Shown: positions 524-60,173, numbered from the stretch's first letter. The stretch: DNA of 64,000 nt from an uncultured Candidatus Binatia bacterium (GCA_965218425.1 OZ244621.1:672001-736000); one strand, 5' to 3'. The notes: generated by a model not told the origin, from the sequence alone. Numbers and translations are program-made.

Positions 524-577
524 AACTTTTGAGAAGGCGAGATGAATCATGTCAAATGTCAAGGTCTGACCCCACAA
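524..577 (-). repeat. GGGGTCA-type end, family 1 (short inverted copy)
   Basis: Reverse complement of the first ~55 nt of the 5291 and 7316 repeats (TTGTGGGG(G)TCAGACCTTGACATTTGACATG...). Confidence 0.9.
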
Positions 578-694
578 TTCGATCGTTTCAAGGCTTCTCC
601 CTTCTCTCCGAGGACTCTGAAACGCCACTCTATTCCAGCTCTGAATGGATGTCGATTTCGCGGGAACGTCACTTGCGTGATATACTTAAGAACT

Positions 695-1411
695 GTGTCT
701 ATCCATTCCTTAGTTCCTGACGCGAAGGCCCTGCTCGAACTTGAGCCCGAGGAGCTTGCAGGCGTCCTGATGGAATACCTCAACTCTCTTTCTCCCTCCG
801 ACCAGCAAAACCTAAACCGGTACAACTTCAGTCTCAATTCCACGGTTCAAGAGTATCCACAGGACCAGCAGGAAGATCTGAGTCAGGCCCTGATGGAGGC
901 GTGGGTCTGGCTTGAGCGTGAAGAGCTTCTAGTGCCTAAGCCTGGGTCAAAAGATGAGTGGGTGATCATCTCTCGCCGCGGTCGACAACTGAGAACACGC
1001 GATCAGGTGTACCATTACCGTCAAGTGAACCTGCTTCCCCATCACCAACTTCATCCTAGAATCGTACAAAAGGTGTGGGCATCGTTTCTGAGAGGCGACT
1101 ACGATACGGCGGTGTTTCAGGCATTCAAAGAGGTCGAAGTTCGGGTTCGGGAGGCCGCATAATGTGCAGACACGGACATCGGAGTCGCCTTGATGCGGAA
1201 AGCGTTCGGGAAACGCGGTCCTCTGGCAGACGTTTCGGCGCCAATGGCGGAACAGCAGGCGCTCTCTGATCTCTTTGCGGGAGCAATCGGATCTTACAAG
1301 AACCCCCACAGCCATCGCAGCGTGACCATCGACTCAAGCGAGGCTGCCGAGATGATCATGCTGTTCAGTCACCTGCTTTGCATTGTGGACAAGCGTTTGT
1401 CCAACGATTAG
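695..1411 (+). pseudogene. TIGR02391-family protein interrupted by an in-frame TAA (1160-1162)
   Basis: Motifs LMEAWVWLEREELL, YDTAVFQAFKEVEVRVR and LFAGAIGSYKNPHSHR. ORFs 542-1162 and 1190-1411 are in the same frame. Probable GTG start at 695. Confidence 0.75.
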
Positions 1412-1441
1412 TAGTGTATCAGTTTGGTCGGTCGGTACCCC

Positions 1442-1472
1442 TTGACAACCCTGACTCTGTCTGTTTTATGGT
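1442..1472 (+). promoter_or_regulatory. Possible sigma70 promoter for the leader ORF and metal uptake operon
   Basis: TTGACA at 1442-1447 and TATGGT at 1467-1472. The 19 nt spacer is long. Confidence 0.35.
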
Positions 1473-1478
1473 ACTATC

Positions 1479-1769
1479 ATGCTGTTTGCGGCGATGAAGG
1501 TAGTTCTCCATACTCAACGCCTGATCGGGGCCGCCCTTTTGCTGGCGGTTTTTCTCCTCCCCCTCCACCTCCATCCCGTTAACCCGCTGCTACTGATCAA
1601 CAAGGATTGTACCTGTTACTCGAGTGCGAGGACACAACTCGGCCTGCCTCATGCCAAAATCACAGTCGCACCCGTCATTCAATCCTTACCGCTTGTATTT
1701 CCAGAGTCTTTTTTTCTCGTTCCGCTTTTTGCCCAACCACACCCGAGCCGCGCCCCCCCTACCCTGTAA
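1479..1769 (+). CDS. DUF2946/CruR-like leader protein with HxH, CxC and a C-terminal RAPP motif
   Basis: Hydrophobic N-terminus, LHLH, CTC, ends PSRAPPTL. Lies directly upstream of a metal uptake operon. Confidence 0.7.
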   Translation: MLFAAMKVVLHTQRLIGAALLLAVFLLPLHLHPVNPLLLINKDCTCYSSARTQLGLPHAKITVAPVIQSLPLVFPESFFLVPLFAQPHPSRAPPTL

Positions 1770-1858
1770 CCGTTTCGTTTTTTCTTAAATCGATAGGGTA
1801 TTTTCTCCTTTCCTCATGAGCGAAGGGAGCGAACCGTTTGCATTTAGGGGGGAAATTC

Positions 1859-3169
1859 ATGATTTCTTTAAAAGAACGATCGTTTATGTCAGTGTGCGTA
1901 GTGTCGTGTTGCGTAACGTTGTTTGCCGGGGCGGGTTTGACCAAGGAGGACGAAGTTGCTTCTTTGAAAAAGCAGCTCAAGGCGATGCAGCAACAAACGC
2001 AGAAGTTACTCCTGCGGATCGAACGGATAGAACGAAAGTCGGAGAGATCAAGATCAGGGAACTCAGGGCAAGAGCCTGCTCAGAACCAGGCAAAACGGGA
2101 GAACGCCAGTGCGCCAAAGGGAGCGCAATCTAGCTCAACCACGTCTGATAGAGCACGCTCCATTTCCAGAGCCTTTAACCCCGCCGTCAGTGTGAATGGG
2201 TTGTTTCTCGGTGGCTGGGCTTCCTCGGTTGATGCCGATAACGAGCTGACGGGTCTGGACTTCCAGAATGGGTTCAACCTGCAGGAGGCAGAGTTTCGTT
2301 TCACTTCGGATGTGGATCCGTATTTCAATGCGGATATGACTGTGGCCGTCGCTCCAGAAGGAGATGTGGAGCTGGAGGAGGGATTCGTTACCTCGAATCA
2401 GCTTCCCGGAGACATCATGCCGCGTGGGTTAAGTCTTAAGATCGGAAAGTTTTTTACCGACTTCGGTAAACACAATTTGCTTCATAGTCATCAGTTTCCT
2501 TTCATTGACCGTCCCCTGGTGAGTGAATCCGTGTTTGGCGATGAAGGGCTCAATGAACCGGCAGTTGGTCTGAGCTATCTCTTCCCCGTCCCCTGGTTTT
2601 CCGAGTTCACCTTTCAAGGAATGCAGGGGGATAATTCCAACCTCTTTGTCCTTTCAGATGACGCTTCTCCTCAAGGGGCCTTCCTCGGCCACTGGAAGAA
2701 CTTCTTCGATCTCAGCGACGAAAGCACTCTTGAGTTTGGTAACTCCTATGTCGGCGGACGTAACTCCGGTTCGGGCTATTCGCAAGCTATCGGTGTCGAC
2801 CTAACTCTCAAGTGGATTCCTTTGAAACGCGCTCAGGATCGGGCCCTCATCTGGCAGAACGAATACATTTATTCTTCCGTCGATCGAGACGATAGCGCAC
2901 GGCGCGAGACGGGAGGACTGTATACTTCACTCCAGTATCGTCTCTCTCGTCTATGGTGGTTGCAGGGTCGCTACGATCTGCTTGGAGCCCCCAACTCCAG
3001 AGAGGGAATGGATCATAAATGGACGTTGCTCGCAGCTCTGGTGCCGAGCGAGTTTTCGGCCTTGAGATTGCAGTATAGCCGGACGCAACGGGAGTTTGGG
3101 GATGACATCGATCAGATTCTTTTTCAGCTGAACTACACCCTAGGCTCTCATCCGGCACACAAATATTAG
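1859..3169 (+). CDS. Putative outer-membrane metal uptake protein (zinc-regulated receptor/porin-like)
   Basis: Signal peptide, coiled coil, FNPAVSVNG, VDPYF, FGKHNLLHSHQFPF, C-terminal GSHPAHKY. G-rich SD before ATG 1859. Confidence 0.7.
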   Translation: MISLKERSFMSVCVVSCCVTLFAGAGLTKEDEVASLKKQLKAMQQQTQKLLLRIERIERKSERSRSGNSGQEPAQNQAKRENASAPKGAQSSSTTSDRARSISRAFNPAVSVNGLFLGGWASSVDADNELTGLDFQNGFNLQEAEFRFTSDVDPYFNADMTVAVAPEGDVELEEGFVTSNQLPGDIMPRGLSLKIGKFFTDFGKHNLLHSHQFPFIDRPLVSESVFGDEGLNEPAVGLSYLFPVPWFSEFTFQGMQGDNSNLFVLSDDASPQGAFLGHWKNFFDLSDESTLEFGNSYVGGRNSGSGYSQAIGVDLTLKWIPLKRAQDRALIWQNEYIYSSVDRDDSARRETGGLYTSLQYRLSRLWWLQGRYDLLGAPNSREGMDHKWTLLAALVPSEFSALRLQYSRTQREFGDDIDQILFQLNYTLGSHPAHKY

Positions 3170-3178
3170 GAGAAACCT

Positions 3179-4087
3179 ATGAAATGGTTTAGCGTATGGG
3201 TCTTCTCGGTTGTTTTCTTAACTTCTCCGCCGGCCCCTCTTGCGGGGAAGACTTTGTCTGTGGTCGCCACCACCACTGATCTTGCTGCCATCGCCGAGGC
3301 GTTGGGAGGTAAAAGGGTGAAAGTAAGAAGCGTCGCAAAGGGGGCCCAGGATCCCCATTACGTTGCCGCAAAGCCCAGCTACATGCGCTTGCTCAATCGA
3401 GCCGACCTGCTTCTTTATGTGGGACTACAGTTGGAAATTGGTTGGCTGTCCCTGTTGGTGGAAGGGGCTAGGAATCCGGGACTCGTCTCCCTTGATCTCT
3501 CCCGGGAAATCTCAGTCCTTGAAGTGCCTGGGGGGGAGGTGACCCGCGCGCAAGGTGACATTCACCCTGAGGGCAATCCCCATTACTGGCTTGACCCCAG
3601 GAACGGTTTCGTGATGGCGAGACGTATTGCCTTGCAGTTCAAGGCCCTGGCGCCCGATGATGGGCCTTATTTTGAACAGAGACTGAACCTTTTCGAGAAA
3701 AAGCTGCGGGATCGTATCCAAAAGTGGGAACAGCAGATGACGCCTTACCGTGGTCAGGAGATCGTTGCGTATCACAAGCAATGGGAGTACCTGGCGAATT
3801 GGTTGGGATTGTCCATTATTGGCTATGTGGAAGATAAACCGGGAATTCCACCGGCGCCAAAACATGTGGTCAGACTCACGCGCTCGATTCGGGAGCGTAA
3901 GGTCAAAGCACTGCTGGTTTCCAGCTTTATCAATCCGCGTATCCCGCAATCCGTGGCCCATAAGGCTGGGACAACCATGGTCATTCTTCCTGCATCCGTG
4001 GGAGGTGATAAGGGAGTGAAAACCTATAGCGATCTATTTGAATCTATTGTAGGAAGCCTGCTCTCAGTCCTAAAGCAAGGTCGGTGA
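3179..4087 (+). CDS. Zn/Mn ABC transporter substrate-binding protein (TroA/ZnuA family)
   Basis: QDPH, GNPHYWLDP and YH motifs; signal peptide. Confidence 0.9.
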   Translation: MKWFSVWVFSVVFLTSPPAPLAGKTLSVVATTTDLAAIAEALGGKRVKVRSVAKGAQDPHYVAAKPSYMRLLNRADLLLYVGLQLEIGWLSLLVEGARNPGLVSLDLSREISVLEVPGGEVTRAQGDIHPEGNPHYWLDPRNGFVMARRIALQFKALAPDDGPYFEQRLNLFEKKLRDRIQKWEQQMTPYRGQEIVAYHKQWEYLANWLGLSIIGYVEDKPGIPPAPKHVVRLTRSIRERKVKALLVSSFINPRIPQSVAHKAGTTMVILPASVGGDKGVKTYSDLFESIVGSLLSVLKQGR

Positions 4088-4093
4088 TCGTCC

Positions 4094-4924
4094 ATGATTG
4101 AGTTTATAAACATCATGGGCCCGGCCATAGCGGCGTGTTTCGTTCTAGTGGCCATTTATGTCTATTTCGGCATTCACATCGTTCGTCGCGGGGCGATTTT
4201 TGTTGATTTGGCCCTGGCGCAAGTAGCGGCCATGGGCGCTACTGTGGCATTTCTCGCGGGTTATCCGCTTGAAGGCGGCGTTGCTTATATTTTTTCCCTG
4301 GTTTTTGCCTTTTTAGGTTCGCTGGTTTTCACTTGGACCCGTGCCCAAGAGGGCAGGGTTCCAGAGGAAGCGATTATAGGCATTGTTTATGCTTTCTGCG
4401 CCGCCGCCGTGGTCCTCCTCGTAGATAAGGCCCCCCACGGCGCTGAGCATATAAAGTACTTACTTGTCGGAAACATCCTCTGGGTAAAATGGAATACCAT
4501 CGGGCAGATTTTCGCCGTGGCCGTAGTGGTTGGACTTTTCCATGTCGTATTTCGGCAAAAGTTCCTGCTGGTTTCGTTTGATCCGGAGCGGGGTCGCCGA
4601 CAAGGGATATCCGTTCCTCTCTGGGATCTCCTTTTTTATCTATCCTTGGCCTGGGTGGTGACTACTTCCGTCCAAATAGCGGGGGTGCTTCTCATCTTTT
4701 CATTCCTGATTGTACCGGCGGTCTGTGGGATCTTGTTTAGCGGCAGTTTTCGGCTGAGCCTCTTGGCGGGTTGGTTGGTGGGTGGCAGTGTGAGCCTGGC
4801 TGGGAGCTATCTCTCTTATGGTTGGGACCTCCCCACTGGAGCGTCCGTAATCTGCACCTTTGGGTTTGTCCTCTTTTGCCTCGTTGCACTGAAGAGACTC
4901 ATCTTGACCTGGCGACGGCCTTAA
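4094..4924 (+). CDS. Zn/Mn ABC transporter permease (ZnuB/ABC-3 family)
   Basis: Multi-TM protein with DLALAQ, EAIIG, LVGNIL and GVLLIFSFLIVPA. Confidence 0.9.
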   Translation: MIEFINIMGPAIAACFVLVAIYVYFGIHIVRRGAIFVDLALAQVAAMGATVAFLAGYPLEGGVAYIFSLVFAFLGSLVFTWTRAQEGRVPEEAIIGIVYAFCAAAVVLLVDKAPHGAEHIKYLLVGNILWVKWNTIGQIFAVAVVVGLFHVVFRQKFLLVSFDPERGRRQGISVPLWDLLFYLSLAWVVTTSVQIAGVLLIFSFLIVPAVCGILFSGSFRLSLLAGWLVGGSVSLAGSYLSYGWDLPTGASVICTFGFVLFCLVALKRLILTWRRP

Positions 4925-4951
4925 CTTATAAAAGGAGGAGGAGACTAGGCC

Positions 4952-5317
4952 ATGGGTGAAAACATATCCGCGAAAGAACTCCCGGAAATCCTACCTGTTT
5001 TTCCTCTGACGGGATCTTTGCTCTTGCCGGGAACCACCCTTCCTCTACATATTTTTGAGCCACGTTACCGCAACCTGGTGGAGGATGCACTGGGAAGCGA
5101 CAAGGTTTTCGGCATGATCCAGCCGTTTGCTCCTCAGGAAGACAATCGCCCCTTGCCCGGCGCTGAAAAGGAAATACCGCAACTCTACCATGTGGGATGT
5201 GCCGGCTTCATTGAAAAATGGGAAAAGACACCTGACGGGCGTTACGGAATCTATCTGCGTGGAGTTAATCGCTTTCGCATGGAAGAGGAATTGTGGGGGT
5301 CAGACCTTGACATTTGA
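4952..5317 (+). pseudogene. Lon N-terminal (substrate-binding) domain protein, truncated by the insertion at 5291
   Basis: LPVFPL, LLPGTTLPLHIFEPRY, DGRY, GVNRF. The tail WGSDLDI is encoded by the repeat. Confidence 0.85.
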
Positions 5318-5483
5318 CATGATTCATCTCGCCTTCTCAAAAGTTATTGAGGGAGCACAAAAGCTCTCCCGCCGCTGTCGCCCCCCAGGTTGCACTGTCC
5401 CGACACCACGGGGTGGCGGCTGCTGCAATATGCGTCAAGACGCCGTCGCATGACGTGGAGCGGCACGGCCATGTCGTCTTTTG
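5291..5483 (+). repeat. GGGGTCA-type end, family 1, ~193 bp (direct repeat of 7316-7509)
   Basis: Near-identical to 7316-7509 on direct alignment. Confidence 0.95.
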
Positions 5484-6218
5484 CGCCTCTCGCCGGACCC
5501 TCAGTCGCCCTCGGCGCATGCCGCCGCCGTAAGATCATCTCGAACCGTTCGGATGCCGTCACGACCCTTTGCGGTATTGCCGACTCAAGCTGTCTGGTCC
5601 CGATCCCGGTCCGCTTTACACACTCCGATTCATTGATTCCCGGTCTCGGCTCCCGCACACTCCCGCCGCAAGACGGGTGGATTCCCGTTAACTTGACGAT
5701 ACTGACGGAACACGGCGGGGCCGTGTCGCTGACGGGATCCGATACATTCGAGGCGTTTCTCAAAGCGGCATAAAGACCTGAGTTGATAGTGCCGGGAGCT
5801 TGCTCGGCTGGACGGATTCGACGATCACACTGAGATGGCGCTCCGGTTTCAAGCGAACCGTGGTCTGCCGTTCAATGGGGGTACCCAATCGATTTCAGCG
5901 ATAATGATTGATGGTCCGCGCACCGGTTTTGCCATGTGGAAGCAATCGTATGGACCCCGACCGGCTCCACCGACTTTCCCGCCGAAATACGACCCCGGAA
6001 ACAGCCGGGAAACGGCCCTTAAAAGCCGGTTATCCACAGCCTGTGAACAAATTTCCAACTATCTGATTCACCCAAAATTCGAGACCGGGCCAGCGTTCAA
6101 ATCCTGAAAAACAAGGGTTCCATCCCGCATCAGCCCACTTCCGGTCTTTTTCGTCGCCCTACATCAATCAGGGCAACCAGAAAACATTGAATCGTCAAAC
6201 GAGAAGATACCAGCCGAT

Positions 6219-6635
6219 CTAGGCTTTCTTGTGAAGGGCTTGGGGTTCTCCTGACTTCAGCGAAATGACTTGAGGCTCCTTGCCCTTCACGTTGCAGCGG
6301 CCCTCAAAAAACACGCCCTCCTCCATGATCAGGACGGGTGTTACTATATCGCCGACTACTCGGGCTGATTTTCGTAATTCGACACGTTCCTGCACAGTGA
6401 TATGGCCGGAGAATTGACCTGCCAGGATCGCCGTACCCGCTCGTACGTCGGCCTCTAGCCTTCCCGATTCGCTGACTATCAGGGTGTTGGAAGAGATCAG
6501 CTCTCCGCTGAATTTTCCGTTCACGATGAGGGTTCCAACAAACGTCAGGCGGCCTTCCATTTCACAGCCGTGATCGATAACCGACATCGCGGCGTGTTCG
6601 GGATTTGATTTGTGTTTGGACTTCCGAAACCTCAT
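6219..6635 (-). CDS. Bactofilin (polymer-forming cytoskeletal protein)
   Basis: Beta-helix repeats, V-G-I-T--L-MEEG--FEG-C. Confidence 0.9.
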   Translation of the reverse strand: MRFRKSKHKSNPEHAAMSVIDHGCEMEGRLTFVGTLIVNGKFSGELISSNTLIVSESGRLEADVRAGTAILAGQFSGHITVQERVELRKSARVVGDIVTPVLIMEEGVFFEGRCNVKGKEPQVISLKSGEPQALHKKA

Positions 6636-6661
6636 GGTTGAACCATCTCAATTATGCTCGG

Positions 6662-7105
6662 TTATGAATTGGGTTGATTGTTAGCGAGCTTCGTTTGTTC
6701 TCTTGGCTTCAGCAGGGTAGGATCTGCGGAGTGGCGTTCGGGAACGGCTTCAGAGCCCCGTTGCACCTTCACCACGTTGCCATTGAAGAAGCCGCCTTTG
6801 GATATTACGAGAGAATCCGTTTCGACGTTACCGCTTACGCGTCCCGTGGCCGTGATCTCGACAGTGCCGGTGGCGACCATATTACCCTCGTACTGCCCCA
6901 TAATGAGGGCGTCGGTCGTGCGGACGTCGGCGCGGACAATCCCCTTCTCGCCGATCACGAATCTGCCGCCTACATTGATTTCACCCGTGACTTCGCCCTT
7001 GATCTGGATCGATTCGGTAATATTAAATTTACCTTCCAGCCGGGCGCCTTCGCCGATAACGGTGAGGGGTGGAACTGAAGGATCGCGGCGTTTGTTTTTG
7101 AACAT
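6662..7105 (-). CDS. Bactofilin (polymer-forming cytoskeletal protein)
   Basis: TVIGEGARLEG, IGEKG, GGFFNG. Confidence 0.9.
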   Translation of the reverse strand: MFKNKRRDPSVPPLTVIGEGARLEGKFNITESIQIKGEVTGEINVGGRFVIGEKGIVRADVRTTDALIMGQYEGNMVATGTVEITATGRVSGNVETDSLVISKGGFFNGNVVKVQRGSEAVPERHSADPTLLKPREQTKLANNQPNS

Positions 7106-7132
7106 AAATGGATCTCCTCGGGCCTGGAATCA

Positions 7133-7148
7133 AGCACGGATCGTGCCA
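7133..7148 (-). promoter_or_regulatory. Sigma54 (-24/-12) promoter of the bactofilin pair
   Basis: Minus strand TGGCACGATCCGTGCT (GG-N10-GC), about 28 nt upstream of the ATG at 7105. Confidence 0.6.
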
Positions 7149-7315
7149 AAAGAATCCCGTTCACCTCTACATGATCACCATCTGACGGTCAAGTCCCATT
7201 TTTCCCGTAAAAGGCTGAGGCGTTGGATATCCTCTTTCCCACATCAGGCAACGGCCAGTTGAGCGGGAGAAGCCGTCATAGTCTCCATCGAGGTTGTTCG
7301 AGCTGCTTGATCACG

Positions 7316-7509
7316 TTGTGGGGGTCAGACCTTGACATTTGACATGATTCATCTTGCCTTCTCAAAAGTTATTGAGGGAGCACGAAAACTCTCCCGCCGC
7401 TGTCGCCCCCCCAGGTTGCACTGTCCCGACACCACGAGGTGGCGGCTGCTGCAATATGCGTCAAGACGCCGTCGCATGACGTGGAGCGGCTCGGCCATGT
7501 CGTCTTTTG
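7316..7509 (+). repeat. GGGGTCA-type end, family 1, ~194 bp
   Basis: Direct repeat of 5291-5483. Confidence 0.95.
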
Positions 7510-7809
7510 AAACCGCCGTCAGCCTTGCCCCTTTGCTATTCCGGGTTCCCTTCCCTTTCGGATTCCCGCTTGTATCGTGCCAATTCTCTCTTGGAATGTC
7601 CTGTCCTTTTGGACGCGGTGTTCTAATCGGCCCAACCCACGGCTCATCACCCCGGCATCACGGCTTGAATACCGGTGTGGGCGAACGGAAATAATTGGAA
7701 ATGGACCGGAAACCTGCCGGATTTTCCGGCCCGTTTAGGGCTCGAAAAACGGGCCTTAAATGGCCGTTAAATCGGGGCTGGCGTTCAAACCCCTGAAAAA
7801 CAAGGGTCT

Positions 7810-7869
7810 CATCCCGCATCATCCCGGTTCATCCCGCATCATCCCGGTTCATCCCGCATCATCCCACTT
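7810..7869 (+). repeat. Tandem 10-mer array, CATCCC(GCAT/GGTT/ACTT) x6
   Basis: Read directly. A related 2-unit version with the same upstream flank lies at 6093-6140. Confidence 0.9.
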
Positions 7870-7875
7870 AAAATC

Positions 7876-8027
7876 GGGGTCAGGTAACATGAAAAAGGGG
7901 TCAAGCTCCAGTAGGATGGTGGTTGTAACAGCCATCAAACCTGAAAGGAGAAGACCCCATGCTTTACGTCGGGATAGACTATCACAAACGATACGCTCAG
8001 CTAAATGCCATCGACGGGAAAGGGAGA
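7876..8027 (+). mobile_element. GGGGTCAGGTAACATG end fused to an IS110-family left end and truncated transposase start
   Basis: SD AGGAG, ATG 7959, MLYVGIDYHKRYAQLNAIDGKG (IS110 DEDD N-terminal GID-H-K motif). Other copies at 21155 and 59022. Confidence 0.75.
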
Positions 8028-8066
8028 GCCCGGGTCGATTCAGCCCGCCCCCGGTTTAAAAATTAC

Positions 8067-8372
8067 CTATGGCAGCGTGCGATTCCGCCCCGCGACAATG
8101 GACTTTACCCTTAGCTCCTTCCTATGCTGCTCGGCGTGCCACAGGTCATAGCTGGATTGCATATTCATCCATAGGTCCGAACTTGTGCCCAAGGCAAGGG
8201 AAAGCCTCACAGCCATCTCGGGACTGATCCCGCTGTGCTCGTTGACAAGCTCGGAAAGCGCCTTGCGGGAAACAGCCAGACGCCTGGCCGTCTCGGTAAT
8301 GGAGATACCCAAAGGCTCAATCCACTGTCTTAGCAAAACACCGCCGGGATGAGGGGGATTATGCATTCTCAT
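8067..8372 (-). CDS. higA: HigA-family antitoxin (HTH)
   Basis: [26 protein letters not shown]. Confidence 0.9.
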
Positions 8373-8381
8373 GACCACCTC

Positions 8382-8660
8382 CTAATGATGATCCACGTAA
8401 TCAACTACTTCGGCGTGTCCGCCAATGAAACGAAAGTCCACGCTCCAGTCTTTAGCAACATGCACAGACCAAACATTCGCACCACGAGGCTCCAATAGAT
8501 GCAAACGGAAACCAGGCGCCCCCATATCCTTGGCGGACGCGGCTGGGTCCAAAGTGGCTAAAATATCCCTGAGCTTGTCGGCATGCTTGGGCTGAATGCC
8601 TTTCTTGTTGCCGGTCTCGAAAAACCTCTCTGGCCCCTTGTGCTTGAAGCCCTTAATCAC
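8382..8660 (-). CDS. higB: HigB-family toxin (RelE/ParE superfamily)
   Basis: IKGFKHKG--RFFETG, PGFRLH-L, VDYVDHH; upstream of higA. Confidence 0.85.
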   Translation of the reverse strand: MIKGFKHKGPERFFETGNKKGIQPKHADKLRDILATLDPAASAKDMGAPGFRLHLLEPRGANVWSVHVAKDWSVDFRFIGGHAEVVDYVDHH

Positions 8661-19282: not shown

Positions 19283-19348
19283 CGCCAACGCCTCATTTTA
19301 TCTTCATTCACTTGCCGGCTTCAACCCTGTTTGTTCTTGTCTCTCTTG
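19282..19348 (+). repeat. ~66 bp segment duplicated at 60174-60241
   Basis: Manual alignment gives about 4 substitutions and 1 indel. Confidence 0.85.
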
Positions 19349-19350
19349 GT

Positions 19351-19740
19351 AAAGGGGTCAAATCTTTTATTGACAAATAACATCTTCCGGATTTTCCAGC
19401 CGCCTCCGAAATCTTCTATCCACTTCATGCTTTAAGTGAATCCCATGGCACGCCCGGCCCACCGCACCGCAACTCTTCACTCCAGACTCCCTGGCTGCTT
19501 CCACCAACGTCATGTCGCTTAGCCTCTCATTAGGCACATCCCAACTTTCCTCCCCTCGTTCTCCCCTCCTCTGCGGCTCCTCACCAGATCTTCTACCCCC
19601 CATAGATCGTGTGCCTGTGAAACCGTCTTCAGAAATTCCCCATAGTCGCCCCTGCTTAGGAACACCTTTCGGCGGGCGGATCCTCGGTTCATCAAATGAT
19701 AGACCGCACCCCGATATTCAATGCGTAAGGGCCGTGACAT
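19351..19740 (-). mobile_element. Internally deleted RAYT-like Y1 (HUH) transposase with C-terminal HTH and its GGGGTCA end (family 2)
   Basis: N-terminus MSRPLRIEYRGAVYHLMNRG--RRKVF joined to a frameshifted C-terminal segment (MTLVEAARESGV...AV). The HUH core is missing. Ends ...TGTCAATAAAAGATTTGACCCCTTT. Confidence 0.8.
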
Positions 19741-20050
19741 TGATAGCCTTAATTGCGGATTTGCTCCAACGTCTGAAGCCGTTCCGTCTGCAATGTCACC
19801 ATCATCCTCCCATCTTCCCTGATTTGTAGACTTCAGGCTCATCTCTCGTTGGATTCCCTACCTCCCCTCAGGCTCACTTCTCATTGGACAAGACCCCCCC
19901 TTGACTAGAACTCCGCGAGGCTCTACCATGGCTTCGCGGCGAATGGGATGCGGGAACCGGCGGAGACATAACCGCTCCGGTTCACGACTTGGGGAAGCAG
20001 GTTCAAGTCTGCCCCCGTACAAGTTTACCCTACTAGATGGGAGGTCTCGG

Positions 20051-21139: not shown

Positions 21140-21154
21140 CAATTACCTGAAATT

Positions 21155-21946: not shown

Positions 21947-21982
21947 GCAAGCCGGACAGAAAGGGATAAGCCGCGTATGGGT

Positions 21983-50414: not shown

Positions 50415-50651
50415 AGTTACCTCATTTCTCTTGGTTCGCATTCTTCGTGAAACGTCTTCTTAACTGCCTCATTGATCAATACCCGGCTAGAGATGGACGA
50501 GTCAAGATGAACTGAGCGGTGGTTGAGGAAGGCAGTACTTGACCGGAAGATTCAGGTGAAATAAATAGGTCGGGCATTTTACAGTTCAAGAATAGAAGTT
50601 AGGGACCTGGAAGAGCGGTGAGCTAATGGGCGAAAAAAATGTCGACACTTA

Positions 50652-51741
50652 TGGAGAGCCGCATAATATAATGACATTGGATAAGAACTTAATGTATAGT
50701 GGTGGTATGGGAAACCCACTTGGAGTGCGACGGGACTTTGAAGCATTGGAGCGGCGGTGGATGGAGGCGGGGAGGCTGTTGAAGCGAGGGCTGTCGGAGG
50801 CGGAGGTGGCGCGTTGGGTGGGAGTGCACCGCCAGTCGGTGAATCGATGGGCGCGGCAGTTGGCCGAGAGCGGCAGAGCCGGGCTCAAGCAGGCGGGGCG
50901 TGCCGGACGCAAGCCGCGACTGAGCCCGGCGGATCTGAAGAAGATCGAGGGCGGTTTGAAACGGGGACCCGAAGCGCTGGGGTACGACACGAGCCTGTGG
51001 ACCGCAAGGCGAGTGGCCCACTTGATTGGGGAAGCCTGCGGAGTCACATACCATCCGGGCCATGTTTGGCGGATATTGCGGCAGTTGGGGTGGAGTTGCC
51101 AGCGGCCGACGGGACGTGCCTTGGAACGAGATGAAGAGGCGATCCGGCAGTGGAAGAAGAAGCGCTGGCCGGAGATTAAAAAAAAGCCCGAAACGAGGGG
51201 CGAACCATAGTGTTCGTGGACGAAAGCGGGCTGAGCGAGCGGCCGAATCGGTATCGTACGTGGTCGCCCCGAGGACAGACGCCAGTGCTGCAATATCACT
51301 TCAACTGGAAGAGTCTGTCGGCCATCGCCGGAGTCACCTGGTGGCGCTTGTACTTTCGAGTGTATCCGGGAGCCATCAAGAGCCCCCAGATCATCGAATT
51401 CCTGAAGCACTTGATGCGTCATGTTTCCGGGCCGCTGCTGGTAGTGTGGGACGGACTGCCCAGCCACCGGAGCCGGTTGGTTCGGGACTTTGTTGCCGCT
51501 ACCGAAGGCGCGTTGGTGCTGGAACGGTTGCCGGCCTATGCACCGGAACTGAATCCCGTCGAATACCTCTGGGGATACTGGAAGCATCATGAACTGCCCA
51601 ACTTCTGTGCCAAGGACTTCGCTCAACTCAGCCACCATGCTCGTCGCGCCCTTTGCCGAATGCGCCGCAGGCCTCGTCTCGTTACCGCCTTCTGGAAACA
51701 GTCCAGCCTTTTCTGATGTCATTATATTATACGAGGATCAA
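50652..51741 (+). mobile_element. IS630-family insertion sequence with TA duplication
   Basis: TA at 50650-50651 and 51742-51743. 26 bp imperfect IRs share ATAATATAATGACAT. Confidence 0.9.
50707..51716 (+). CDS. IS630 transposase, two ORFs joined by a probable -1 frameshift at A8G (51178-51186)
   Basis: HTH ORF plus DDE ORF (VDES, WDG---H, YAPELNPVE). The -1 frame reads KARNEGRTIVFVDES. Confidence 0.88.
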
Positions 51742-53974
51742 TAAAGCCGTAGGGGCACCTGTTCCCAGGGCGGAAGGACCTCAAAAGGTCACCGGTCAGG
51801 CCGTTTATACAGCGGACGTAAAACTTCCAGGCATGCTCTGGGGCAAGATTCTTCGTAGCTCCCATCCCCACGCTCGCATTCGTCGTATTGATACTGCCAA
51901 GGCCCGCCAAGTGACCGGTGTCAGGGCCATTGTCACCGGTCTGGATATCTCCGGCCGGCTCATGGGTAAGTTGATTCGTGACATGCCTGTTCTCTGCTGG
52001 GACGTGGTTCGATTTATCGGAGATCGAGTTGCCGCCGTGGCTGCTGACACACCCGAAGCCGCAGACGAAGCTCTGGAGCTGATCTCCGTGGACTACGAGG
52101 AGCTAGAAGCGGTCTACGATCCCATCAAGGCCATGGAACTTGACGCTCCACGCATCCATGAAAACGTCGCTGGCTACGACGGTGCCCCTAAAACCCGACT
52201 CGCCGCAGATGTACCCAATGGCCTGACGCGACTGGCGTGGCAGAAGGGCGACGTGAAGCAAGGACTTCGTGCGGCTGACATGGTATTGGAGCATACATTT
52301 CGTATCCCCGGCCGGCACCAAGGTTATATCGAGCCTCACGCTACCGTCGTCGCTATCGAACCCAATGGCAAGATTCAAGTCTGGGCTTCCACCAAACACC
52401 CCTTTGGCAATCGTTCTCAAATGGCAAAGACCCTGGAAATCCCGGAGGACCGAATCTGTTTTAATGCCGTGAATTTGGGGGGAGAGTTTGGGGGAAAAGG
52501 GGACGCGTCAGATGCAGCCGTTGCCTATTTTCTTGCCCAGCAGGCGGCAAGGCCGGTGAAAATGGTCATGACCTCGGCTGAGGAGCTTACTGCGGGTAAT
52601 CCGGCCCATCCCACAGTGGTCACCGTGAAATCCGGAGTAACGCGAGATGGCCGCATCACCGCCCGTTCTCTACGGGCCGTCCACGCAAGCGGCGCCTACG
52701 GCGCCCTTAAGCCCAATGCTACCCTGTCCACGTGGAATTATGTCGGCGGACCCTACCGGGTGGATCATGCCTATTCGGAGTTTTTTCAGATCTACACGAA
52801 CACGGTGCCTGGCGGCTATTTTCGTGGGCCGGGCGGCCTGGCCACCTTCTTTGCCCTGGAATCACACACAGACATCGTTGCCAAGGAGTTGGGCATGGAC
52901 CCCGCCGAATTCCGGCTTAAAAACCTCATTGGCGAAGGCGAAAAGGACACCACAGGGCAGCGGCTCCAGAGTGTGAGATTCCGTGAGGTCCTTCAAGCAG
53001 CGTTGACTGCGGCTAGTTGGAAGGTATCCAAGCCACACGCCAACCGAGGAAAAGGCATTGCGCTGTTTGGGCGCCACACTGGTGCCGGCGATGCCGGGGT
53101 GGCCGTCACTGCTGAACCCGACGGCACCTTCACCGTCATAAGCCCAACGTTTGATCAGGGAGCTGGCGCTCATACCATCTTGCAGCAACTCGTGGCTGAC
53201 GAAATGACAGTCCCCCTCACGCAAGTAAGAGTCACAGCGGGGAACACAGACACTGCTCCCTACGATTCCGGCGCCCGGTCCAGCCGGGGAACCTACGTTG
53301 CAAGCCACGCGGTCATCGAAGCGTGCGGGCAGCTTCGCACCGATCTCTTGTCAAAAGCAGCCCAACTATTGGAATGCCAACCGGAAGAAGTGGACTTTCA
53401 AAATGGTAAGTTTCGACTTCGAGAGGACCCGAACCAACAAGTGGGTCTGAGACAACTCCTAGTTCGAACTCAGGGTCCCCTCACTGTCACCGTGCAAGAG
53501 AATCTTCCTCAACCTACCGATGTAACCTACTTCTGCGCACAGGTTGCCGACGTGGAGGTGAATCCGCAAACCGGAACCCTACGGGTGCACCGCATCGTGA
53601 CCGCCCACGACGTAGGAACAATTATAAACCCCATCATGCACCAGGGCCAAATCGAGGGTGGCGTTGTCATGGGCTTGGGCCAAGCCTGCATGGAAGAACT
53701 GATTATAGAGAATGGCCGGGTGACCAATGCTAACGCCGGCGACTATAAAATGCCCACGGTAGCGGACATCCCTAAACTCAAAACAGTCCTTGTACGCTCT
53801 GGGGGCGGCCCGGCGCCCTACCATGCCAAGGCCATTGGCGAACTGTCCAACAACAGTCCTCCGGCTGCCATCGCCAACGCCGTAGCCAATGGCGTAGGGG
53901 TACGACTATTCGAGCTGCCTATCACCGCTGAACGCATTTACAATGCACTGCGTGGCGATAATGCACGTCAATAA
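51716..53974 (+). CDS. Xanthine dehydrogenase family large subunit; native start at 50639 separated by IS630
   Basis: KVTGQAVY, GGEFGGK, YFRGPG, DQG, GQIEGG, KAIGE. Removing the IS restores MSTLKAVGAPVPR. Confidence 0.85.
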   Translation: MSLYYTRINKAVGAPVPRAEGPQKVTGQAVYTADVKLPGMLWGKILRSSHPHARIRRIDTAKARQVTGVRAIVTGLDISGRLMGKLIRDMPVLCWDVVRFIGDRVAAVAADTPEAADEALELISVDYEELEAVYDPIKAMELDAPRIHENVAGYDGAPKTRLAADVPNGLTRLAWQKGDVKQGLRAADMVLEHTFRIPGRHQGYIEPHATVVAIEPNGKIQVWASTKHPFGNRSQMAKTLEIPEDRICFNAVNLGGEFGGKGDASDAAVAYFLAQQAARPVKMVMTSAEELTAGNPAHPTVVTVKSGVTRDGRITARSLRAVHASGAYGALKPNATLSTWNYVGGPYRVDHAYSEFFQIYTNTVPGGYFRGPGGLATFFALESHTDIVAKELGMDPAEFRLKNLIGEGEKDTTGQRLQSVRFREVLQAALTAASWKVSKPHANRGKGIALFGRHTGAGDAGVAVTAEPDGTFTVISPTFDQGAGAHTILQQLVADEMTVPLTQVRVTAGNTDTAPYDSGARSSRGTYVASHAVIEACGQLRTDLLSKAAQLLECQPEEVDFQNGKFRLREDPNQQVGLRQLLVRTQGPLTVTVQENLPQPTDVTYFCAQVADVEVNPQTGTLRVHRIVTAHDVGTIINPIMHQGQIEGGVVMGLGQACMEELIIENGRVTNANAGDYKMPTVADIPKLKTVLVRSGGGPAPYHAKAIGELSNNSPPAAIANAVANGVGVRLFELPITAERIYNALRGDNARQ

Positions 53975-56101: not shown

Positions 56102-57725
56102 CGGTCTGTTGCCCAAACGTCGGTTCAATAGCGCAATAGATCCAATCGAGCTATAACGTGTTTGTTTGCTCAAGCTATGACGGCTTGCTGCAAGACCATT
56201 GGATGGGGGGCCGCAAAGCGAATGGCCGCCCTCGTTGCTGCAGCCAATACGGCTCTGGGTTTTGGCCGTGTATGAACAATCATCAGCTGGATGTTGTGCA
56301 CAACGGCAATCAAGTAATCCTGAATCTGAACCCGCCAACGACCACGCCACCGCGCTCGTTTCAGTCCGTATCGTTTCCCTTGAGCAAACGATCGTTCCAT
56401 GAAATGCTGACGAACCTTGATATCTCTTCTTGCTGCTTGACTCCGTGCCCGGCTACGCACGCTATCCAATATCTCCTGGCGCTCATGGCGTTTGATGGTT
56501 CGCCCCGCACTTTGACAGTGAGTGCATTGGAGCCGCAAGGCACACTGCTGACACACCCCGCGGCTCGTCACGTACTCAAACGCTTTGCGCTCCACCCAGT
56601 GCTTACGCCGCCTAAGCGGTTGCCCTGCCGGACATGTATAAGTGTCGGTTTCTGGGTCATAAACAAACATACTTTCAGGAAATATCTTGCTCCGACGCTC
56701 CTGCTTATCCTGAGTCTGTTTCAATACCGCAATGTGAGCCATTACCCCACGGTCATAGCACTCCAGAAAATTAGCTGTAGTCCCGTACTTGCTGTCGGCT
56801 ACCACCACCTGGGCACTGCGTTGGGTATGGGCCTGATGATCCTTAAGGAGATCTGTCATGCGATGTGCTTCATTCTCATCCCCAGGGCCAACCATCGTCG
56901 CGGTAATCACCCCATACGCACCGTCAATCCCTCGGTGGGTCTGATAACGCAAATTAGAGTTCCCTTTCTTTCCCTTGCGTAGCACCGAGGCATCTGGATC
57001 GGTCGCCGACACGTAGCGCTGGTTGACAACGTTTTGCCGGGCAGGGTTCTGCGGTGGATCCTCATGCTTGTCCTCTCTTGCCTGTTCCCGCTCCTCCAAT
57101 CGCCCCTCCAACTCCTTGTATGCTGGCCTCAGGTAACGTTTAAGCCCCTGGGTGTCTATGATCGAGTGGCTCGATGCATCCGCAGCAATCAAACTGGAGT
57201 CGCAAAATAGCTTACTCCCGTCTACTAACCCGCTCTCCACACACTGCCACACTACTGGTTCGAAAAAGGAGCGAAACCACTCTACCCCCCAACGCCTCCT
57301 CGCCTTGCTCAGAACGCTGTGCTCGGGTATCTCCGAATCCAACTCCAATCCCAGAAACCACAACCAGTCCAGCCGCTCCGGTAATGTCGCCATCAACTCC
57401 CGCTCGCTACCAACGTTGTACAGCACCAAAAGCATCATCAGCTTTAATATCATTGGCGGTGCAATCGATACGTTGCCGTTGTATCCATATCGATCCTTGA
57501 CTTCTTGGTACACAAAATCAAAATCCACCATCCGTGCTACTTTGCGTAACACGTGGTCCGCTCGTATTCGTTTCTCCAGATTGATCCCTGTGTAGAACAG
57601 TGAAGGCTGAGGGGGGGGTTGATGACCCATCATAGCTTTGCTCCCTAAGTACCGAAATAACTGAGAGCATTATAACCAGAGGGCTCTCTTAACGCATTAA
57701 AAATATCGATTTGGGCAACAGACCG
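56102..57725 (-). mobile_element. IS1182-family insertion sequence, copy 2
   Basis: Perfect 16 bp IR CGGTCTGTTGCCCAAA. Confidence 0.92.
56170..57633 (-). CDS. IS1182-family transposase
   Basis: Protein identical to 23097-24560. Confidence 0.92.
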   Translation of the reverse strand: MMGHQPPPQPSLFYTGINLEKRIRADHVLRKVARMVDFDFVYQEVKDRYGYNGNVSIAPPMILKLMMLLVLYNVGSERELMATLPERLDWLWFLGLELDSEIPEHSVLSKARRRWGVEWFRSFFEPVVWQCVESGLVDGSKLFCDSSLIAADASSHSIIDTQGLKRYLRPAYKELEGRLEEREQAREDKHEDPPQNPARQNVVNQRYVSATDPDASVLRKGKKGNSNLRYQTHRGIDGAYGVITATMVGPGDENEAHRMTDLLKDHQAHTQRSAQVVVADSKYGTTANFLECYDRGVMAHIAVLKQTQDKQERRSKIFPESMFVYDPETDTYTCPAGQPLRRRKHWVERKAFEYVTSRGVCQQCALRLQCTHCQSAGRTIKRHERQEILDSVRSRARSQAARRDIKVRQHFMERSFAQGKRYGLKRARWRGRWRVQIQDYLIAVVHNIQLMIVHTRPKPRAVLAAATRAAIRFAAPHPMVLQQAVIA

Positions 57726-57996
57726 AAAAGACTTGACCCCTTCGCCATTTACGCCAGAAATCAGCCATCGGGTCATGCGGGTCAGCTTTAGGCGCCCGCG
57801 CCCGGCACGAAGGCTCCTCCACGGCAGAGTTTAAACACCCGATAGGATACGCGAACCTCACACGATTTGTGAAACTAAAAGATTTTGGGGTATGGGATAT
57901 TTCAATTTGGGCAAATGCGCGGCGGTGGCGTTGTCAGACTAACTGGATAAGGATTCGACCCGCCGACGAGGCAGACCGGACACAGGGGACATCAGC

Positions 57997-58034
57997 GATG
58001 TACCCTTGACGTACATCATCCAACTTGTTATCTT
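57997..58034 (+). promoter_or_regulatory. higBA promoter and operator
   Basis: TTGACG-17-TATCTT, with GATGTAC-N7-GTACATC spanning the -35 element. Confidence 0.6.
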
Positions 58035-58042
58035 GGCAGGAA

Positions 58043-58330
58043 GTGATCCTCGGCTATCGAGACAGGAAGACGCGGGCGTTCGCCGAAGGACGGTCGGTCA
58101 AGGCGTTCCGCAGCTTCGAGAGCCAGGCCGCGAGACGGCTCGCCATCCTGAATGCTGCGCCTTCGCTCGATACCCTGCGGTCCCTGCCGGGAAACCACCT
58201 CGAAGCGCTCAGGGGCGACAGAATGGGCCGGTACTCCATTCGCATCAATCGGCAATGGAGACTGTGTTTCGAGTGGCCGGCCGGCCAGGCAGGACCGCAC
58301 AACGTTGAGATCGTGGACTACCACGGATGA
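58043..58330 (+). CDS. higB: HigB-family toxin
   Basis: RRL--L-AA, PGNHLEALRGDR-GRYSIRIN-QWR, VEIVDYH. Confidence 0.9.
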   Translation: MILGYRDRKTRAFAEGRSVKAFRSFESQAARRLAILNAAPSLDTLRSLPGNHLEALRGDRMGRYSIRINRQWRLCFEWPAGQAGPHNVEIVDYHG

Positions 58331-58346
58331 CAAGGAGGAAGGTCCG

Positions 58347-58664
58347 ATGTTCATGAGAGCAGTGCATCCCGGCGAGATCCTGAAGGGCGAGCTGGAAGAA
58401 CTGGGGATCACCCCGACGGAGTTCGCACGGCAGATTGACGTGCCCCCTAACCGGGTGAGCCAGATCATCGCAGGCAAGCGTTCGGTCACCGGCGACACCG
58501 CGCTACGCTTCGGCCACTGGTTCGGCGGCGACCCCCAATTCTGGCTCAACCTTCAGGCGCAGTACGACCTGGTTCAAGCCCACAGGGAGACGGGCGCCGA
58601 GATCCGCCATCTGCCGACCAGGGCCGGAACTCCGGGTAAGGGTGCCGCGCCGGGAATCGCATGA
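58347..58664 (+). CDS. higA: HigA-family antitoxin
   Basis: VHPGEIL, GKRSVTGDTALRF, FWLNLQ--YDL. Confidence 0.9.
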   Translation: MFMRAVHPGEILKGELEELGITPTEFARQIDVPPNRVSQIIAGKRSVTGDTALRFGHWFGGDPQFWLNLQAQYDLVQAHRETGAEIRHLPTRAGTPGKGAAPGIA

Positions 58665-58749
58665 ACGGCAGCGAGAGCAAGGGTGCGGCTCGAGCAACGG
58701 GACGGGACCGATGAGGAAAGCGGACGGCGCGGTCGTGGAACCGGCGCGC

Positions 58750-58950
58750 GGCGCCGGGACAAGTTGCGCGGATGGGGAGACGGACGGATCACCTGCCGCG
58801 CTATGCCAAGGGCAGGGGCGGGCAGTCTTCGGAGGTGCCGGCGATCTACGGCGATGCAAGGCTCGGCAAGCTGCCCAGGCATCTGAGGCATTGAGCGCGG
58901 TCGATGCACGGCCCTTCCAGAGGCTTTGCATGGGCGATTTACGGGTCATT
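58750..58950 (+). repeat. ~200 bp dispersed repeat, copy 2 (see 306-519)
   Basis: Manual alignment. Confidence 0.85.
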
Positions 58951-59021
58951 TCGCCCCGGAATTTCTCGGATTTTCCCAGCCATTTTCAATTATTTTTGAT
59001 CCGCTGCGCCGACGAGCGCCT

Positions 59022-59162
59022 CGTCGATGGCATTTAGCTGAGCGTATCGTTTGTGACAGTCTATCCCGACGTAAAGCATGGGGTCTTCTCCTTTCAGGTA
59101 TGACGGCCGCTACAACCACCATCCTACTGGAGCTTGACGCCTTTTTCATGTTACCTGACCCC
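59022..59162 (-). mobile_element. GGGGTCAGGTAACATG / IS110 left-end unit with truncated transposase start
   Basis: Reverse complement aligns with 7876-8016; encodes MLYVGIDCHKRYAQLNAID. Confidence 0.8.
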
Positions 59163-59313
59163 CCATTACCGCGACGGGGAATCCGGAAGTAGAAACTGGA
59201 AGACCCTGACAGACTGATCTGGGCCTGAGTCGCCGGGCGAAAGCGGCGGTGGAGATGGATTCGAGTACACAGATCCCTCGCAGCGACGGGTGCTGTTCGC
59301 CGTGTAGCGGCTG

Positions 59314-59850
59314 TCAGTGCCGGTAGCCCCTGAGCCGGTCGTAACCCTCAATCTGCTCGCCCGTGAGTTCGCGGGTACTCTCGATGTGCGCGAGCAAGTG
59401 GATCGCCTGAAGCTGTCCGCGCATGATGCCTAGATGTTCGGTAACGCGCTTCACTTCCGCCGCCGTCGGCTGTCCTGAAGTAAACAGGTTCGCAAGGTGG
59501 AACTCCGCTTTGAGTATGTCTTCACCTTTGGCAATTGCCTGGGTGCTCATCTTCTTATGAATCGCCTCGATACGCTCGATCTGTGCGTGGTTGAGATCGA
59601 GTTCCGACATGAGTTCGAGAAGATGCTTCGGCCCAGGGAAGTGGTTCAACTCGGCGGCTCGCGCAAGGCCCATGCCTTCGCCGTTCCGCAACTCGCGCAC
59701 TTCATCGGGCGTAAGGCTTGAAACTTCGGTGCTCTGAGCATGCGCATAGGACGATGTCTTGTGAGTATGCTGTGCCAGTGCGGAAGTTGAAGCGGCGGCG
59801 AACAGGCTGATCCAGCCAAACAGCCTGAACATGGCGGTAGGTGTCGTCAT
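59314..59850 (-). CDS. Periplasmic Spy/CpxP-like (heavy-metal sensor-like) protein
   Basis: Signal peptide, GMGLARAAELNHFPGPKH, LT-EQ--GY--LRGY. Confidence 0.7.
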   Translation of the reverse strand: MTTPTAMFRLFGWISLFAAASTSALAQHTHKTSSYAHAQSTEVSSLTPDEVRELRNGEGMGLARAAELNHFPGPKHLLELMSELDLNHAQIERIEAIHKKMSTQAIAKGEDILKAEFHLANLFTSGQPTAAEVKRVTEHLGIMRGQLQAIHLLAHIESTRELTGEQIEGYDRLRGYRH

Positions 59851-59992
59851 TGATCGACTCCGTGATCGAGAAACGGGAGACCGGCACTGTTGCCTGCTTC
59901 AGAACCCGGCCGCCGCGCCAGCCTCTTTCCAGGTCCTGGGTCTCTGTCTGCTCTCATCGGTTCTCACCTCCACGCCCTACACTAATTCCAAT

Positions 59993-60173
59993 AAAGGGGT
60001 CAAATCTTTTATTGACAAATAACATCTTCCGGATTTTCCAGCCGCCTCCGAAATCTTCCATCCGCCTCACGCTTTAATTGAATCCCATGGCGCGTCCAGC
60101 CCACCGCACCGTAACTCTTCACTCCAGACTCCCCGGCTGCTTCCACCAACGTCATATCGCTTAGCCTCTTCAT
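59993..60173 (+). repeat. GGGGTCA-type end, family 2 (RAYT 3' remnant)
   Basis: Direct repeat of 19351-19530. Confidence 0.9.

Follow-up and report, generated by a model that had tools for sequence, protein, structure and literature searches.

TIRtron terminal repeats and adjoining one-sided copies of host DNA in the mosaic islands of a Candidatus Binatia genome

The subject of this analysis is a stretch of 64,000 nucleotides from an uncultured Candidatus Binatia bacterium (GCA_965218425.1 OZ244621.1:672001-736000, hereafter the window), in which mosaic islands are organised around short ends that start with GGGGTCA-like motifs. The window corresponds to C1:672001-736000 of a 4.46-Mb single-contig genome (G000), and the genomes of two relatives (G001 and G002) and three independent public runs or studies (X1, X2 and X3) were used for comparison. 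The closest described elements are TIRtrons, reported in 2013, in which a Y1-HUH transposase gene (TIRYT) is accompanied by GGGGWSAS-type terminal inverted repeats (TIRs) that may overlap the end of the gene (PMC3733652). These correspond to subclass 2.1 of TnpA-REP proteins (REP, repetitive extragenic palindromic) as defined by Quentin et al. in 2018 (PMC6006769) and, according to bioRxiv 2020.03.09.984088, to group 1 of the REP-associated tyrosine transposases (RAYTs), the largest RAYT group, present in 150 species from 21 classes (PMC5581495). The TnpA-REP protein of E. coli carries out single-strand exchange in vitro between specific and loose sites, and its authors raise the possibility that flanking genes are sequestered in the process (PMC3333891). 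In prochlorosin clusters of picocyanobacteria, subclass 2.1 TnpA-REP genes and many C-terminal fragments of them lie among variable genes, for which diversifying recombination was proposed and causality left open, strong evidence for it being lacking according to the authors; the available text states that no inverted repeats were found there (Laurenceau et al., bioRxiv 10.1101/2020.03.09.984088), whereas the present genome has clear repeats, and any kind of host DNA may serve as cargo.

The end families of the window are terminal inverted repeats of TIRtrons. The sequence-only reading of the window had presented them as a candidate one-ended HUH gene-capture system; the system is not new, since TIRtrons and TIRYT have already been described (PMC3733652, PMC6006769). 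A search of G000 with PF01797 (Y1_Tnp) returned four loci, of which two are intact and encode proteins scoring above the profile cut-off, a third is a frameshifted copy and the fourth is a short IS200-like open reading frame (ORF). TIRYT-B (C1:1404076-1405066) lies outside the islands and is bounded by perfect 17-bp repeats of the family named F1, with its stop codon within the right repeat, and TIRYT-A (C1:2583260-2584294) carries an imperfect pair of F5 repeats. All 10 aligned proteins have the residues H59-x-H61 and Y118, the latter being the tyrosine of RYIHLNP. The C-terminal helix-turn-helix (HTH) domain is of DnaA type: Bac_DnaA_C (PF08299) matches both intact proteins weakly (E 4e-4 and 1e-5, under the gathering score) and a TIRYT profile matches DnaA domain IV structures (E 6e-14), while single-sequence and profile searches of the PDB matched DnaA and no TnpA structure. 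The assignment of the ends to Y1-HUH transposases with a C-terminal HTH is upheld by PF01797, the invariant H-x-H and tyrosine and the DnaA-type HTH, and domain architecture and repeats would place the G000 genes in subclass 2.1. For F2, the intact cognate is a 319-aa gene in G001, its repeat GGGGTCAA being one position off the GGGGWSAS consensus, and no intact F2 enzyme is present in G000. In the window, F1 stubs read ...IMSNVKV*, resembling the ...LSNVKV* of TIRYT-B, and family 2 is, as had been proposed, the 3' end of the decayed RAYT-like gene at 19351, namely the C-terminal piece of an internally deleted TIRYT. This remnant (19351-19754) consists of a 146-bp N-terminal and a 232-bp C-terminal piece, 80% identical to the intact G001 gene; about 590 bp have been deleted within 19349-19754, including the HUH motif and catalytic tyrosine, and since the 5' repeat is missing as well it is a non-autonomous remnant.

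The available descriptions of TIRtrons agree with the present elements in the DnaA-type C-terminal HTH, the GGGGWSAS repeats, the occurrence of these repeats solo, paired or clustered, and the lack of REP hairpins. The RAYT, REP, BIME and REPIN systems share the catalytic family, however no palindromic REP is seen here, an extra HTH is present and the proteins score 65.5 and 73.2 bits against NF047646 (REP-associated tyrosine transposase), below its cut-off of 80. With the IS200/IS605 TnpA the TIRYT proteins have Y1_Tnp in common, yet they measure about 320 aa with an HTH against about 150 aa, score 15-17 against a cut-off of 55 for NF033573 (IS200/IS605), and have inverted repeats in place of subterminal hairpins. 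IS91 and ISCR elements use HUH chemistry, leave no target duplication, have a fixed end at the 3' side of the gene and capture neighbouring DNA. This would resemble the present case, as would Helitrons in chemistry, lack of target duplication and capture of neighbouring DNA; both, however, belong to another transposase family, TIRtrons have two inverted ends, and the copies seen here lie on the outer side of the end without a transposase gene. A Pfam scan of the TIRYT proteins for an IS91-type transposase returned Y1_Tnp only, and the pattern of a fixed end with a variable other end is seen at 9 of 11 junction pairs, beside common two-ended miniature inverted-repeat transposable elements (MITEs).

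All end coordinates listed by the sequence-only reading were confirmed in the window, where motifs start at 573(-), 5296 and 7321 for F1, at 19354, 21011 (a GGGATCA variant), 23014, 57740(-) and 59996 for F2, and at 7876, 21155 and 59162(-) for F3; the stub at 57726-57743, taken for a family 2 3' end, proved to be the 5' repeat of the F2 TIRYT element. The three families with GG(G/T)GTCA starts are real, however the heptamer itself is unenriched (25 occurrences of GG[GT]GTCA in the window against 19.5 expected, with a maximum of 28 in 30 Markov simulations) and was rejected as evidence for them; they rest on longer homology, defined by 20-400 bp of common sequence at 85-100% identity, with copies 5-20% diverged. 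A seed search of G000 gave 201 ends after merging of duplicates: 19 F1 plus 2 partner ends, 18 F2, 39 F3, 39 F3b and 58 of F5, a further family absent from the earlier list, in addition to 26 defined solely through an adjoining insertion sequence (IS). Clusters summing to 286 kb of the 4.46 Mb, in about 12 islands, contain 179 of the 201. The outermost 10 nt of F1 are invariant across 17 of 17 distinct flanks. The fixed outer boundary claimed earlier stands in that sequences break near the motif, but a variable linker of 2-5 nt (up to 9 nt in relatives) separates the break from GGGG, and a bias in flank composition extends to position -6, with G in 22 of 33 F3 and 27 of 45 F5 ends. Judged by their similarity to TIRYT-type genes, most solo ends are 3' ends: 66 were classified as 3' and 4 as 5' (105 of 175 unclassified), and tblastn loci comprised 55 C-terminal and 17 N-terminal pieces. 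Inside the repeat, GTCA...TGAC forms a small dyad with no stable hairpin, and single ends (six strands from three ends) fold no better than shuffled sequences (z -0.8 to +1.6); the hairpin or REPIN-like mode suggested earlier was accordingly rejected, because single ends do not fold.

Evidence that a single end may act on its neighbourhood comes from a breakpoint test, in which an outermost end counted as positive if its outer flank exists a second time without an end and the similarity of the two breaks off at the end. Positives made up 16 of 146 outermost ends, while positions drawn at random gave 51 of 2400 in the islands and 8 of 1500 in the genome, and after removal of the 26 IS-defined and 3 confounded ends 11 of 117 remained positive (Fisher p 9e-5). 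Homology in the positives breaks 2-5 nt before GGGG. The F1 family, which has the intact matching enzyme and the most uniform copies, contributes positives at 5 of 18 ends, and 9 of the 11 copied blocks have no end at their far junction. At 12 of the 44 ends in loci of the relatives, similarity to a G000 allele lacking the end breaks off with a gap of 2-9 nt (mode 5); three of the 12 are internal to stacks. A 17-nt F1 pattern retrieved 131 stretches from metagenome contigs, of which 73 non-redundant loci were analysed, a 27-nt F1 pattern having no match there; three direct pairs from these contigs have 8-9 nt of outer flank in common, and the cut position may therefore vary by family. Five of the metagenome loci (L183, L223, L218, L241 and L200) are very short two-ended F1-type units of about 70-150 bp, and L208 and L222 contain tandem repeats of 37-57 bp made of an end plus 8-9 nt of flank. 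As expected from HUH chemistry, no target duplication was detected: the motif bounds 22 of 80 related loci on both sides, and the flanks of these 22 TIRtrons were no richer in short direct repeats than shuffled pairs (absent from 15 of 22 flanks, versus 69% when shuffled).

Two cases in the window have a polarity that can be read, and its features are as follows.

524 to 577, minus strand: F1 end, 3' TIR of a TIRYT-B-like gene, with outer linker; reads ...IMSNVKV* into the repeat
1427 to 5293, no strand assigned: copy of the native Zn-ABC/LonN operon, 99.0% to C1:1795494-1799364; LonN cut at about codon 113
5291 to 5483, plus strand: F1 end with 188-bp stub, running into sequence that an F5 end replaces in other copies
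6165 to 7315, no strand assigned: bactofilin-pair block, 97% to C1:2792033-2793184; stops at an F1 outer edge; copying direction not established
7316 to 7690, plus strand: stack of an F1 stub (7316-7509) and an F5 end (motif 7515; 3' end of a TIRYT-A-like gene)
7876 to 8034, plus strand: F3 end (F3 and F3b, 21 nt apart) with a short ORF start
19277 to 19348, plus strand: host sequence X, left copy, upstream of a chlorite-dismutase-family gene; single copy in G001
19349 to 19754, minus strand: internally deleted F2 TIRYT; 3' TIR at 19354 with 5-nt linker; catalytic core and 5' TIR missing
21008 to 21217, plus strand: stack of an F2 stub (144 bp) and an F3 end at 21155; junction found four times in G000 and once in G001
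21247 to 23010, no strand assigned: tonB-fragment block, 98% to C1:2756144-2758546, which ends in an uninterrupted F2 end
23011 to 23028, plus strand: F2 3' TIR stub, cut by IS1182 after 15 bp
23029 to 24652, minus strand: IS1182-family element, copy a
24653 to 56101, no strand assigned: native 31-kb chromosomal block between identical IS1182 copies; not TIRYT cargo
56102 to 57725, minus strand: IS1182-family element, copy b
57726 to 57743, minus strand: F2 5' TIR stub, cut by IS1182 after 15 bp
59020 to 59162, minus strand: F3 end
59993 to 60173, plus strand: F2 end with 180-bp stub; its joint with X has about 4 nt of microhomology
60172 to 60241, plus strand: right copy of host sequence X (93% to the left one); continues into the native downstream gene, as in G001

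In the first case, the window copy of LonN stops at the F1 edge, whereas native LonN, in the operon at C1:1795494-1799364, runs on intact; the Zn-ABC/LonN operon is present once in G001, syntenic over both junctions. The second is the insert at 19349-60173, which is absent from both G001 and G002, so that the comparison with empty sites called for earlier could be made. On the left it starts at an F2 edge plus 5 nt; on the right it ends in an F2 stub whose joint shows a microhomology of about 4 nt. A host segment (X) of about 70 bp is duplicated around the insert. Contigs from X1, X2 and X3 bridge the left junction at 19349, and the right junction at 60173 is seen in X1 and X3; the left junction of the Zn-ABC copy (1426/1427) is bridged in X1, and X2 and X3 reach 30 nt across it. 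Some lone ends of this genome thus adjoin duplicated, cut-off copies of host genes, which suggests from the sequence comparison that one end alone can copy neighbouring DNA into variable islands. Further joints and neighbours were observed at the F1 ends: in X2 and X3 a 117-bp F1 stub ending at 5412 is followed by another F1 outer edge at 7315, a joint uncatalogued in G000 whose short side is 30 letters, and a TIGR02391-like gene (542-1411, with a stop near 1160) lies immediately outside the F1 end at 573. TIRYT-B itself replaces about 1.5 kb, where G001 has other native genes (about 1.6 kb) and G002 a similar gap, between ORFs that we take to be rsmI-like and modA-like. A clean two-ended empty site was not obtained, the TIRYT-B site holding other DNA in G001 and the flanks of L079 being too diverged.

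The reading we prefer, at a probability of roughly 0.55, is that a TIRYT acting in trans would go on using the ends, one at a time as well as in pairs: it would nick about 5 nt outside the repeat and pass one strand on to a further end or a loosely chosen target, after which replication would resolve the crossover. Here the HTH would bind the terminal repeat and the HUH domain would nick one strand about 5 nt outside it, within a predicted window of -2 to -5 and probably at -5. The nicked strand would be transferred to a second nicked strand, either at another end or at a loose site, often with G at -6, and the resulting single-strand crossover would be resolved by replication with a microhomology template switch. 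Two ends would thus allow a MITE or TIRtron to move, a nearby target would give a stack or an adjacent deletion, and a distant target would leave 70 bp to 3.9 kb of target-flanking DNA copied beside the end. Larger rearrangements would be added by DDE insertion sequences that prefer the motif (IS1182 and IS3-type) and by homologous recombination, so that the islands would be built jointly. The sequence comparisons place the joints 2-5 nt outside the motif without target duplication, find the sources intact in the two cases checked and contain the stacks, while the part of the enzyme, the strand polarity and the resolution step would follow by analogy with the strand exchange described in the available text on TnpA-REP (PMC3333891).

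Several observations weigh against this reading. Most ends (106 of 117) have no end-free second copy in the genome, one of the 11 breakpoint positives is a match to a dispersed repeat, and the direction of copying was verified in two cases, three more source regions compared with G001 giving no polarity. The far junctions of the copied blocks may have been set by later events. The junction at 5293/5296 was not bridged among the matches listed from X1-X3. A cognate gene ending in the motif, predicted by the sequence-only reading, exists for F1 (TIRYT-B in G000) and F2 (in G001), however none was found for F3 in 301 genomes searched, of which 3, all of one family, hold the F3 pattern. Metagenome F1-type ends beside a gene were 5' more often than 3' (21 against 11). 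Lastly, signs of exchange between ends, taken up below, are absent from the F2->F3 stacks, which show no divergence step (9.4 vs 10.5%, n=4), and no Mantel test for the swapping of ends reached significance, the positive controls included.

The most serious alternative, which we consider unlikely on balance, is that TIRtrons and MITEs were inserted with both ends in the ordinary way and subsequently broken up through deletion, homologous recombination and the action of DDE insertion sequences; lone ends would then be old insertion points, and duplicated blocks would have moved by recombination between repeats. Two-ended forms are indeed plentiful: besides the intact genes there are a 1.3-kb unit bounded by F1 repeats (C1:2039739-2041079) and 21 F5...F3 MITEs, 197-274 bp in length. 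Because of the MITEs, the one-ended mode proposed earlier is not pure. The MITEs and the large moves, such as that of the 31-kb block carried by IS1182 (below), would be explained in this way. The 5-20% divergence of the copies would suit old, recombined insertions, and adjacent deletion and IS recombination are general IS behaviour in the available text of PMC11708052. Insertion sequences also cut ends at fixed positions. The large IS of the window belongs to the IS1182 family (NF033551, 306 bits against a cut-off of 270), and in both G000 and G001, 15-bp stubs from various GGGGTCA families are found again and again in front of IS1182-type ends. This explains the 18-bp 'ends' at 23011 and 57726, since IS1182 follows 15 bp inside the motif, and an uncut allele of the 23011 stub is found at C1:2758532; stubs do vary in inner length, but the shortest of the range of about 18-390 bp given earlier are thus IS1182 truncations. 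IS1182-type relics were also noted at C1:219487, 661678, 1560580, 1938757 and 2469956. An element that we take, from its ends, to be IS3-type has 17 copies on C1 (for example at 250317, 435093, 2779693 and 3880352) with 3-bp duplications; the motif, with at most one mismatch, lies 10 bp before the left end in 11 of the 17, and at 2779693 the target is a true F2 end. A further IS in G001 is inserted within the terminal repeat after TGACC, seen at 13 of 18 left junctions (L076, L078, L080, L083, L089, L093 and others), disabling TIRtron ends. Decay of two-ended insertions, however, does not account for the native sources (the LonN operon and X-Y), which are intact and without end or scar, nor for the return junction at 60173, where microhomology and a 70-bp duplication stand in place of a second repeat, and the strong 3' bias would be unexpected from symmetric decay.

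Part of the window's rearrangement is in any case the work of IS1182. Positions 24653-56101 are colinear with G001 C5:327113-359055, and in G001 this 31-kb block comes directly after the counterpart of G000 C1:4375015, a position at which G000 retains an IS1182. Two identical IS1182 copies flank the block in the window, so IS1182, or recombination between its copies, moved 31 of the 41 kb, and the whole 41-kb insert was rejected as TIRYT cargo, leaving a TIRYT-associated insert of about 9.5 kb. The proposal that ends truncate genes and build islands holds insofar as ends abut truncated and duplicated host genes above chance, but not for these 31 kb of 19351-60173. The peptidase deletion at about 60440 spans 2.9 kb, with a 16-bp overlap and no end at its junction.

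A wider form of the preferred reading is rather unlikely and is offered tentatively: TIRYT could be an HUH recombinase and the terminal repeat a portable attachment site, a single end being joined, about 5 nt outside GGGGTCA, to another end or to host DNA. Host genes would thereby be copied into islands and end-bounded cassettes reshuffled, with no integrase, hairpin or target duplication involved. Ends do follow one another head to tail, in stacks whose junctions are fixed: F3->F3b was counted 34 times, F1->F5 eight times (after about 193 bp) and F2->F3 four times (after about 145 bp), besides other combinations, and the same stacks recur at other sites in G001 and G002. The eight F1->F5 stacks share one junction, yet the divergence among them is 4.7% over the 90 bp upstream and 16.4% over the 90 bp downstream (control 5.3 vs 4.7%); gene conversion may also account for this step, since F2->F3 stacks lack it and the Mantel tests were uninformative. 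At L076 a G001 TIRtron and a resident end are neighbours, with a spacer of 55 bp, and the TIRtron carries the outer flank which that end has in G000; integration at an end of a circle made of the element and its flank would give this layout, in one case. The same observations could be read as an integron-like cassette system, in which ends are attachment sites and directly repeated ends release cassettes that re-enter at other ends. This we regard as improbable, although the stacks, the L076 flank swap and the F1->F5 divergence step would suit it: cargo is often truncated (LonN, tonB), the 57 same-direction pairs of consecutive ends (beside 34 inward and 27 outward) are 57 of 118, about the 50% chance level, and no fixed insertion platform lies beside a TIRYT gene, intact TIRYT-B being outside the islands. 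No IntI with attI was found either, with five PF00589 matches genome-wide, of which the only one near the window is a 61-position sub-cut-off fragment at C1:662006.

It is very improbable that the ends are passive, patched into breaks or recombination hot spots without any current part of TIRYT; linker lengths of 2 to 9 nt, the lack of intact F2 and F3 enzymes in G000 and the capture into existing breaks proposed for other IS in the available text of PMC11708052 would allow it, however the breaks are concentrated at the outer edge, to within a few nt, rather than in the shared repeat, and the terminal 10 nt of F1 do not vary. Assembly chimeras, conceivable in a repeat-rich single-contig assembly of unknown read type, are highly improbable, the junctions tested (19349, 60173 and 1426/1427) being present in contigs of independent studies and the same stacks in G001 and G002.

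Some island segments of G000 (C1:1579741-1591308, 3534798-3536848, 2305369-2312167 and 1702852-1705365) are 95-99% identical to G001 against a backbone of about 85-89%, which suggests recent transfer between species; one of them, of 11.5 kb, starts at an F3 end, and its outer flanks differ between the two genomes. A sequence that closely follows a 450-codon integrase frame (C1:2538095-2538308) is found again, attached to F1 and F3 ends, in G001 and in islands of G000. The left island of the window (C1:646569-681468) is matched in G001 by a different island of its own, also with an F2 remnant, and no intact integrase or tRNA anchoring the islands was seen in the window. Each window island has one higBA-type toxin-antitoxin pair (8067-8660 and 58031-58664, the second toxin read by eye). 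The F3 end at 7876 is bordered on its outer side by 10-bp tandem repeats (7792-7868), of which a shorter form occurs at 6103-6141. The short ORF start within that F3 end (MLYVGIDYHK) is presumably of IS110 type, without a profile match; the ISKra4 and IS110 pieces named earlier were not borne out, no small piece tested having a profile match. Two other repeats are present: a dispersed repeat of about 250-350 bp at 27139-27623, with dozens of copies in G000 and G001 and unrelated to GGGGTCA ends, and a repeat-bounded element at 50649-51744 with 37-bp inverted arms and about 19 genomic copies, whose minus-strand 357-aa ORF has no Pfam or NCBIfam match. At both contig ends, near-identical duplications of 5 kb and 13 kb (C1:1-5096 and 3289962-3306887 versus the contig end) may be an assembly feature.

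The element class is thus already known, and the junction geometry and one-sided host copies, as they appear in these genomes, would be the new part. In their available text, the TIRtron and TIRYT papers give no mechanism, cut position, empty sites or flank capture, whereas the present data provide junction geometry, one-sided host copies, cross-family stacks and three end-targeting IS types. A literature search, outside which lay most subscription journals and preprint supplements, found no tested TIRYT mechanism, no one-sided copying at TIRYT ends and no experimental account of a single-strand HUH enzyme using hairpin-less inverted repeats. This genome offers an intact enzyme, an exact repeat, a predicted cut window, natural products with unmodified source alleles, and empty sites in relatives, and the mechanism is therefore directly testable. 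If the wider recombinase reading were true, a bacterial transposase family that is widespread would provide a third HUH gene-capture route, next to those of IS91/ISCR and the Helitrons, and several IS families would be specialised for insertion into TIRYT ends. One-ended copying, if true, would be an unrecognised source of gene duplication, truncation and island turnover in common elements, and the enzyme would be a DNA-joining activity with a short site and possible technical use.

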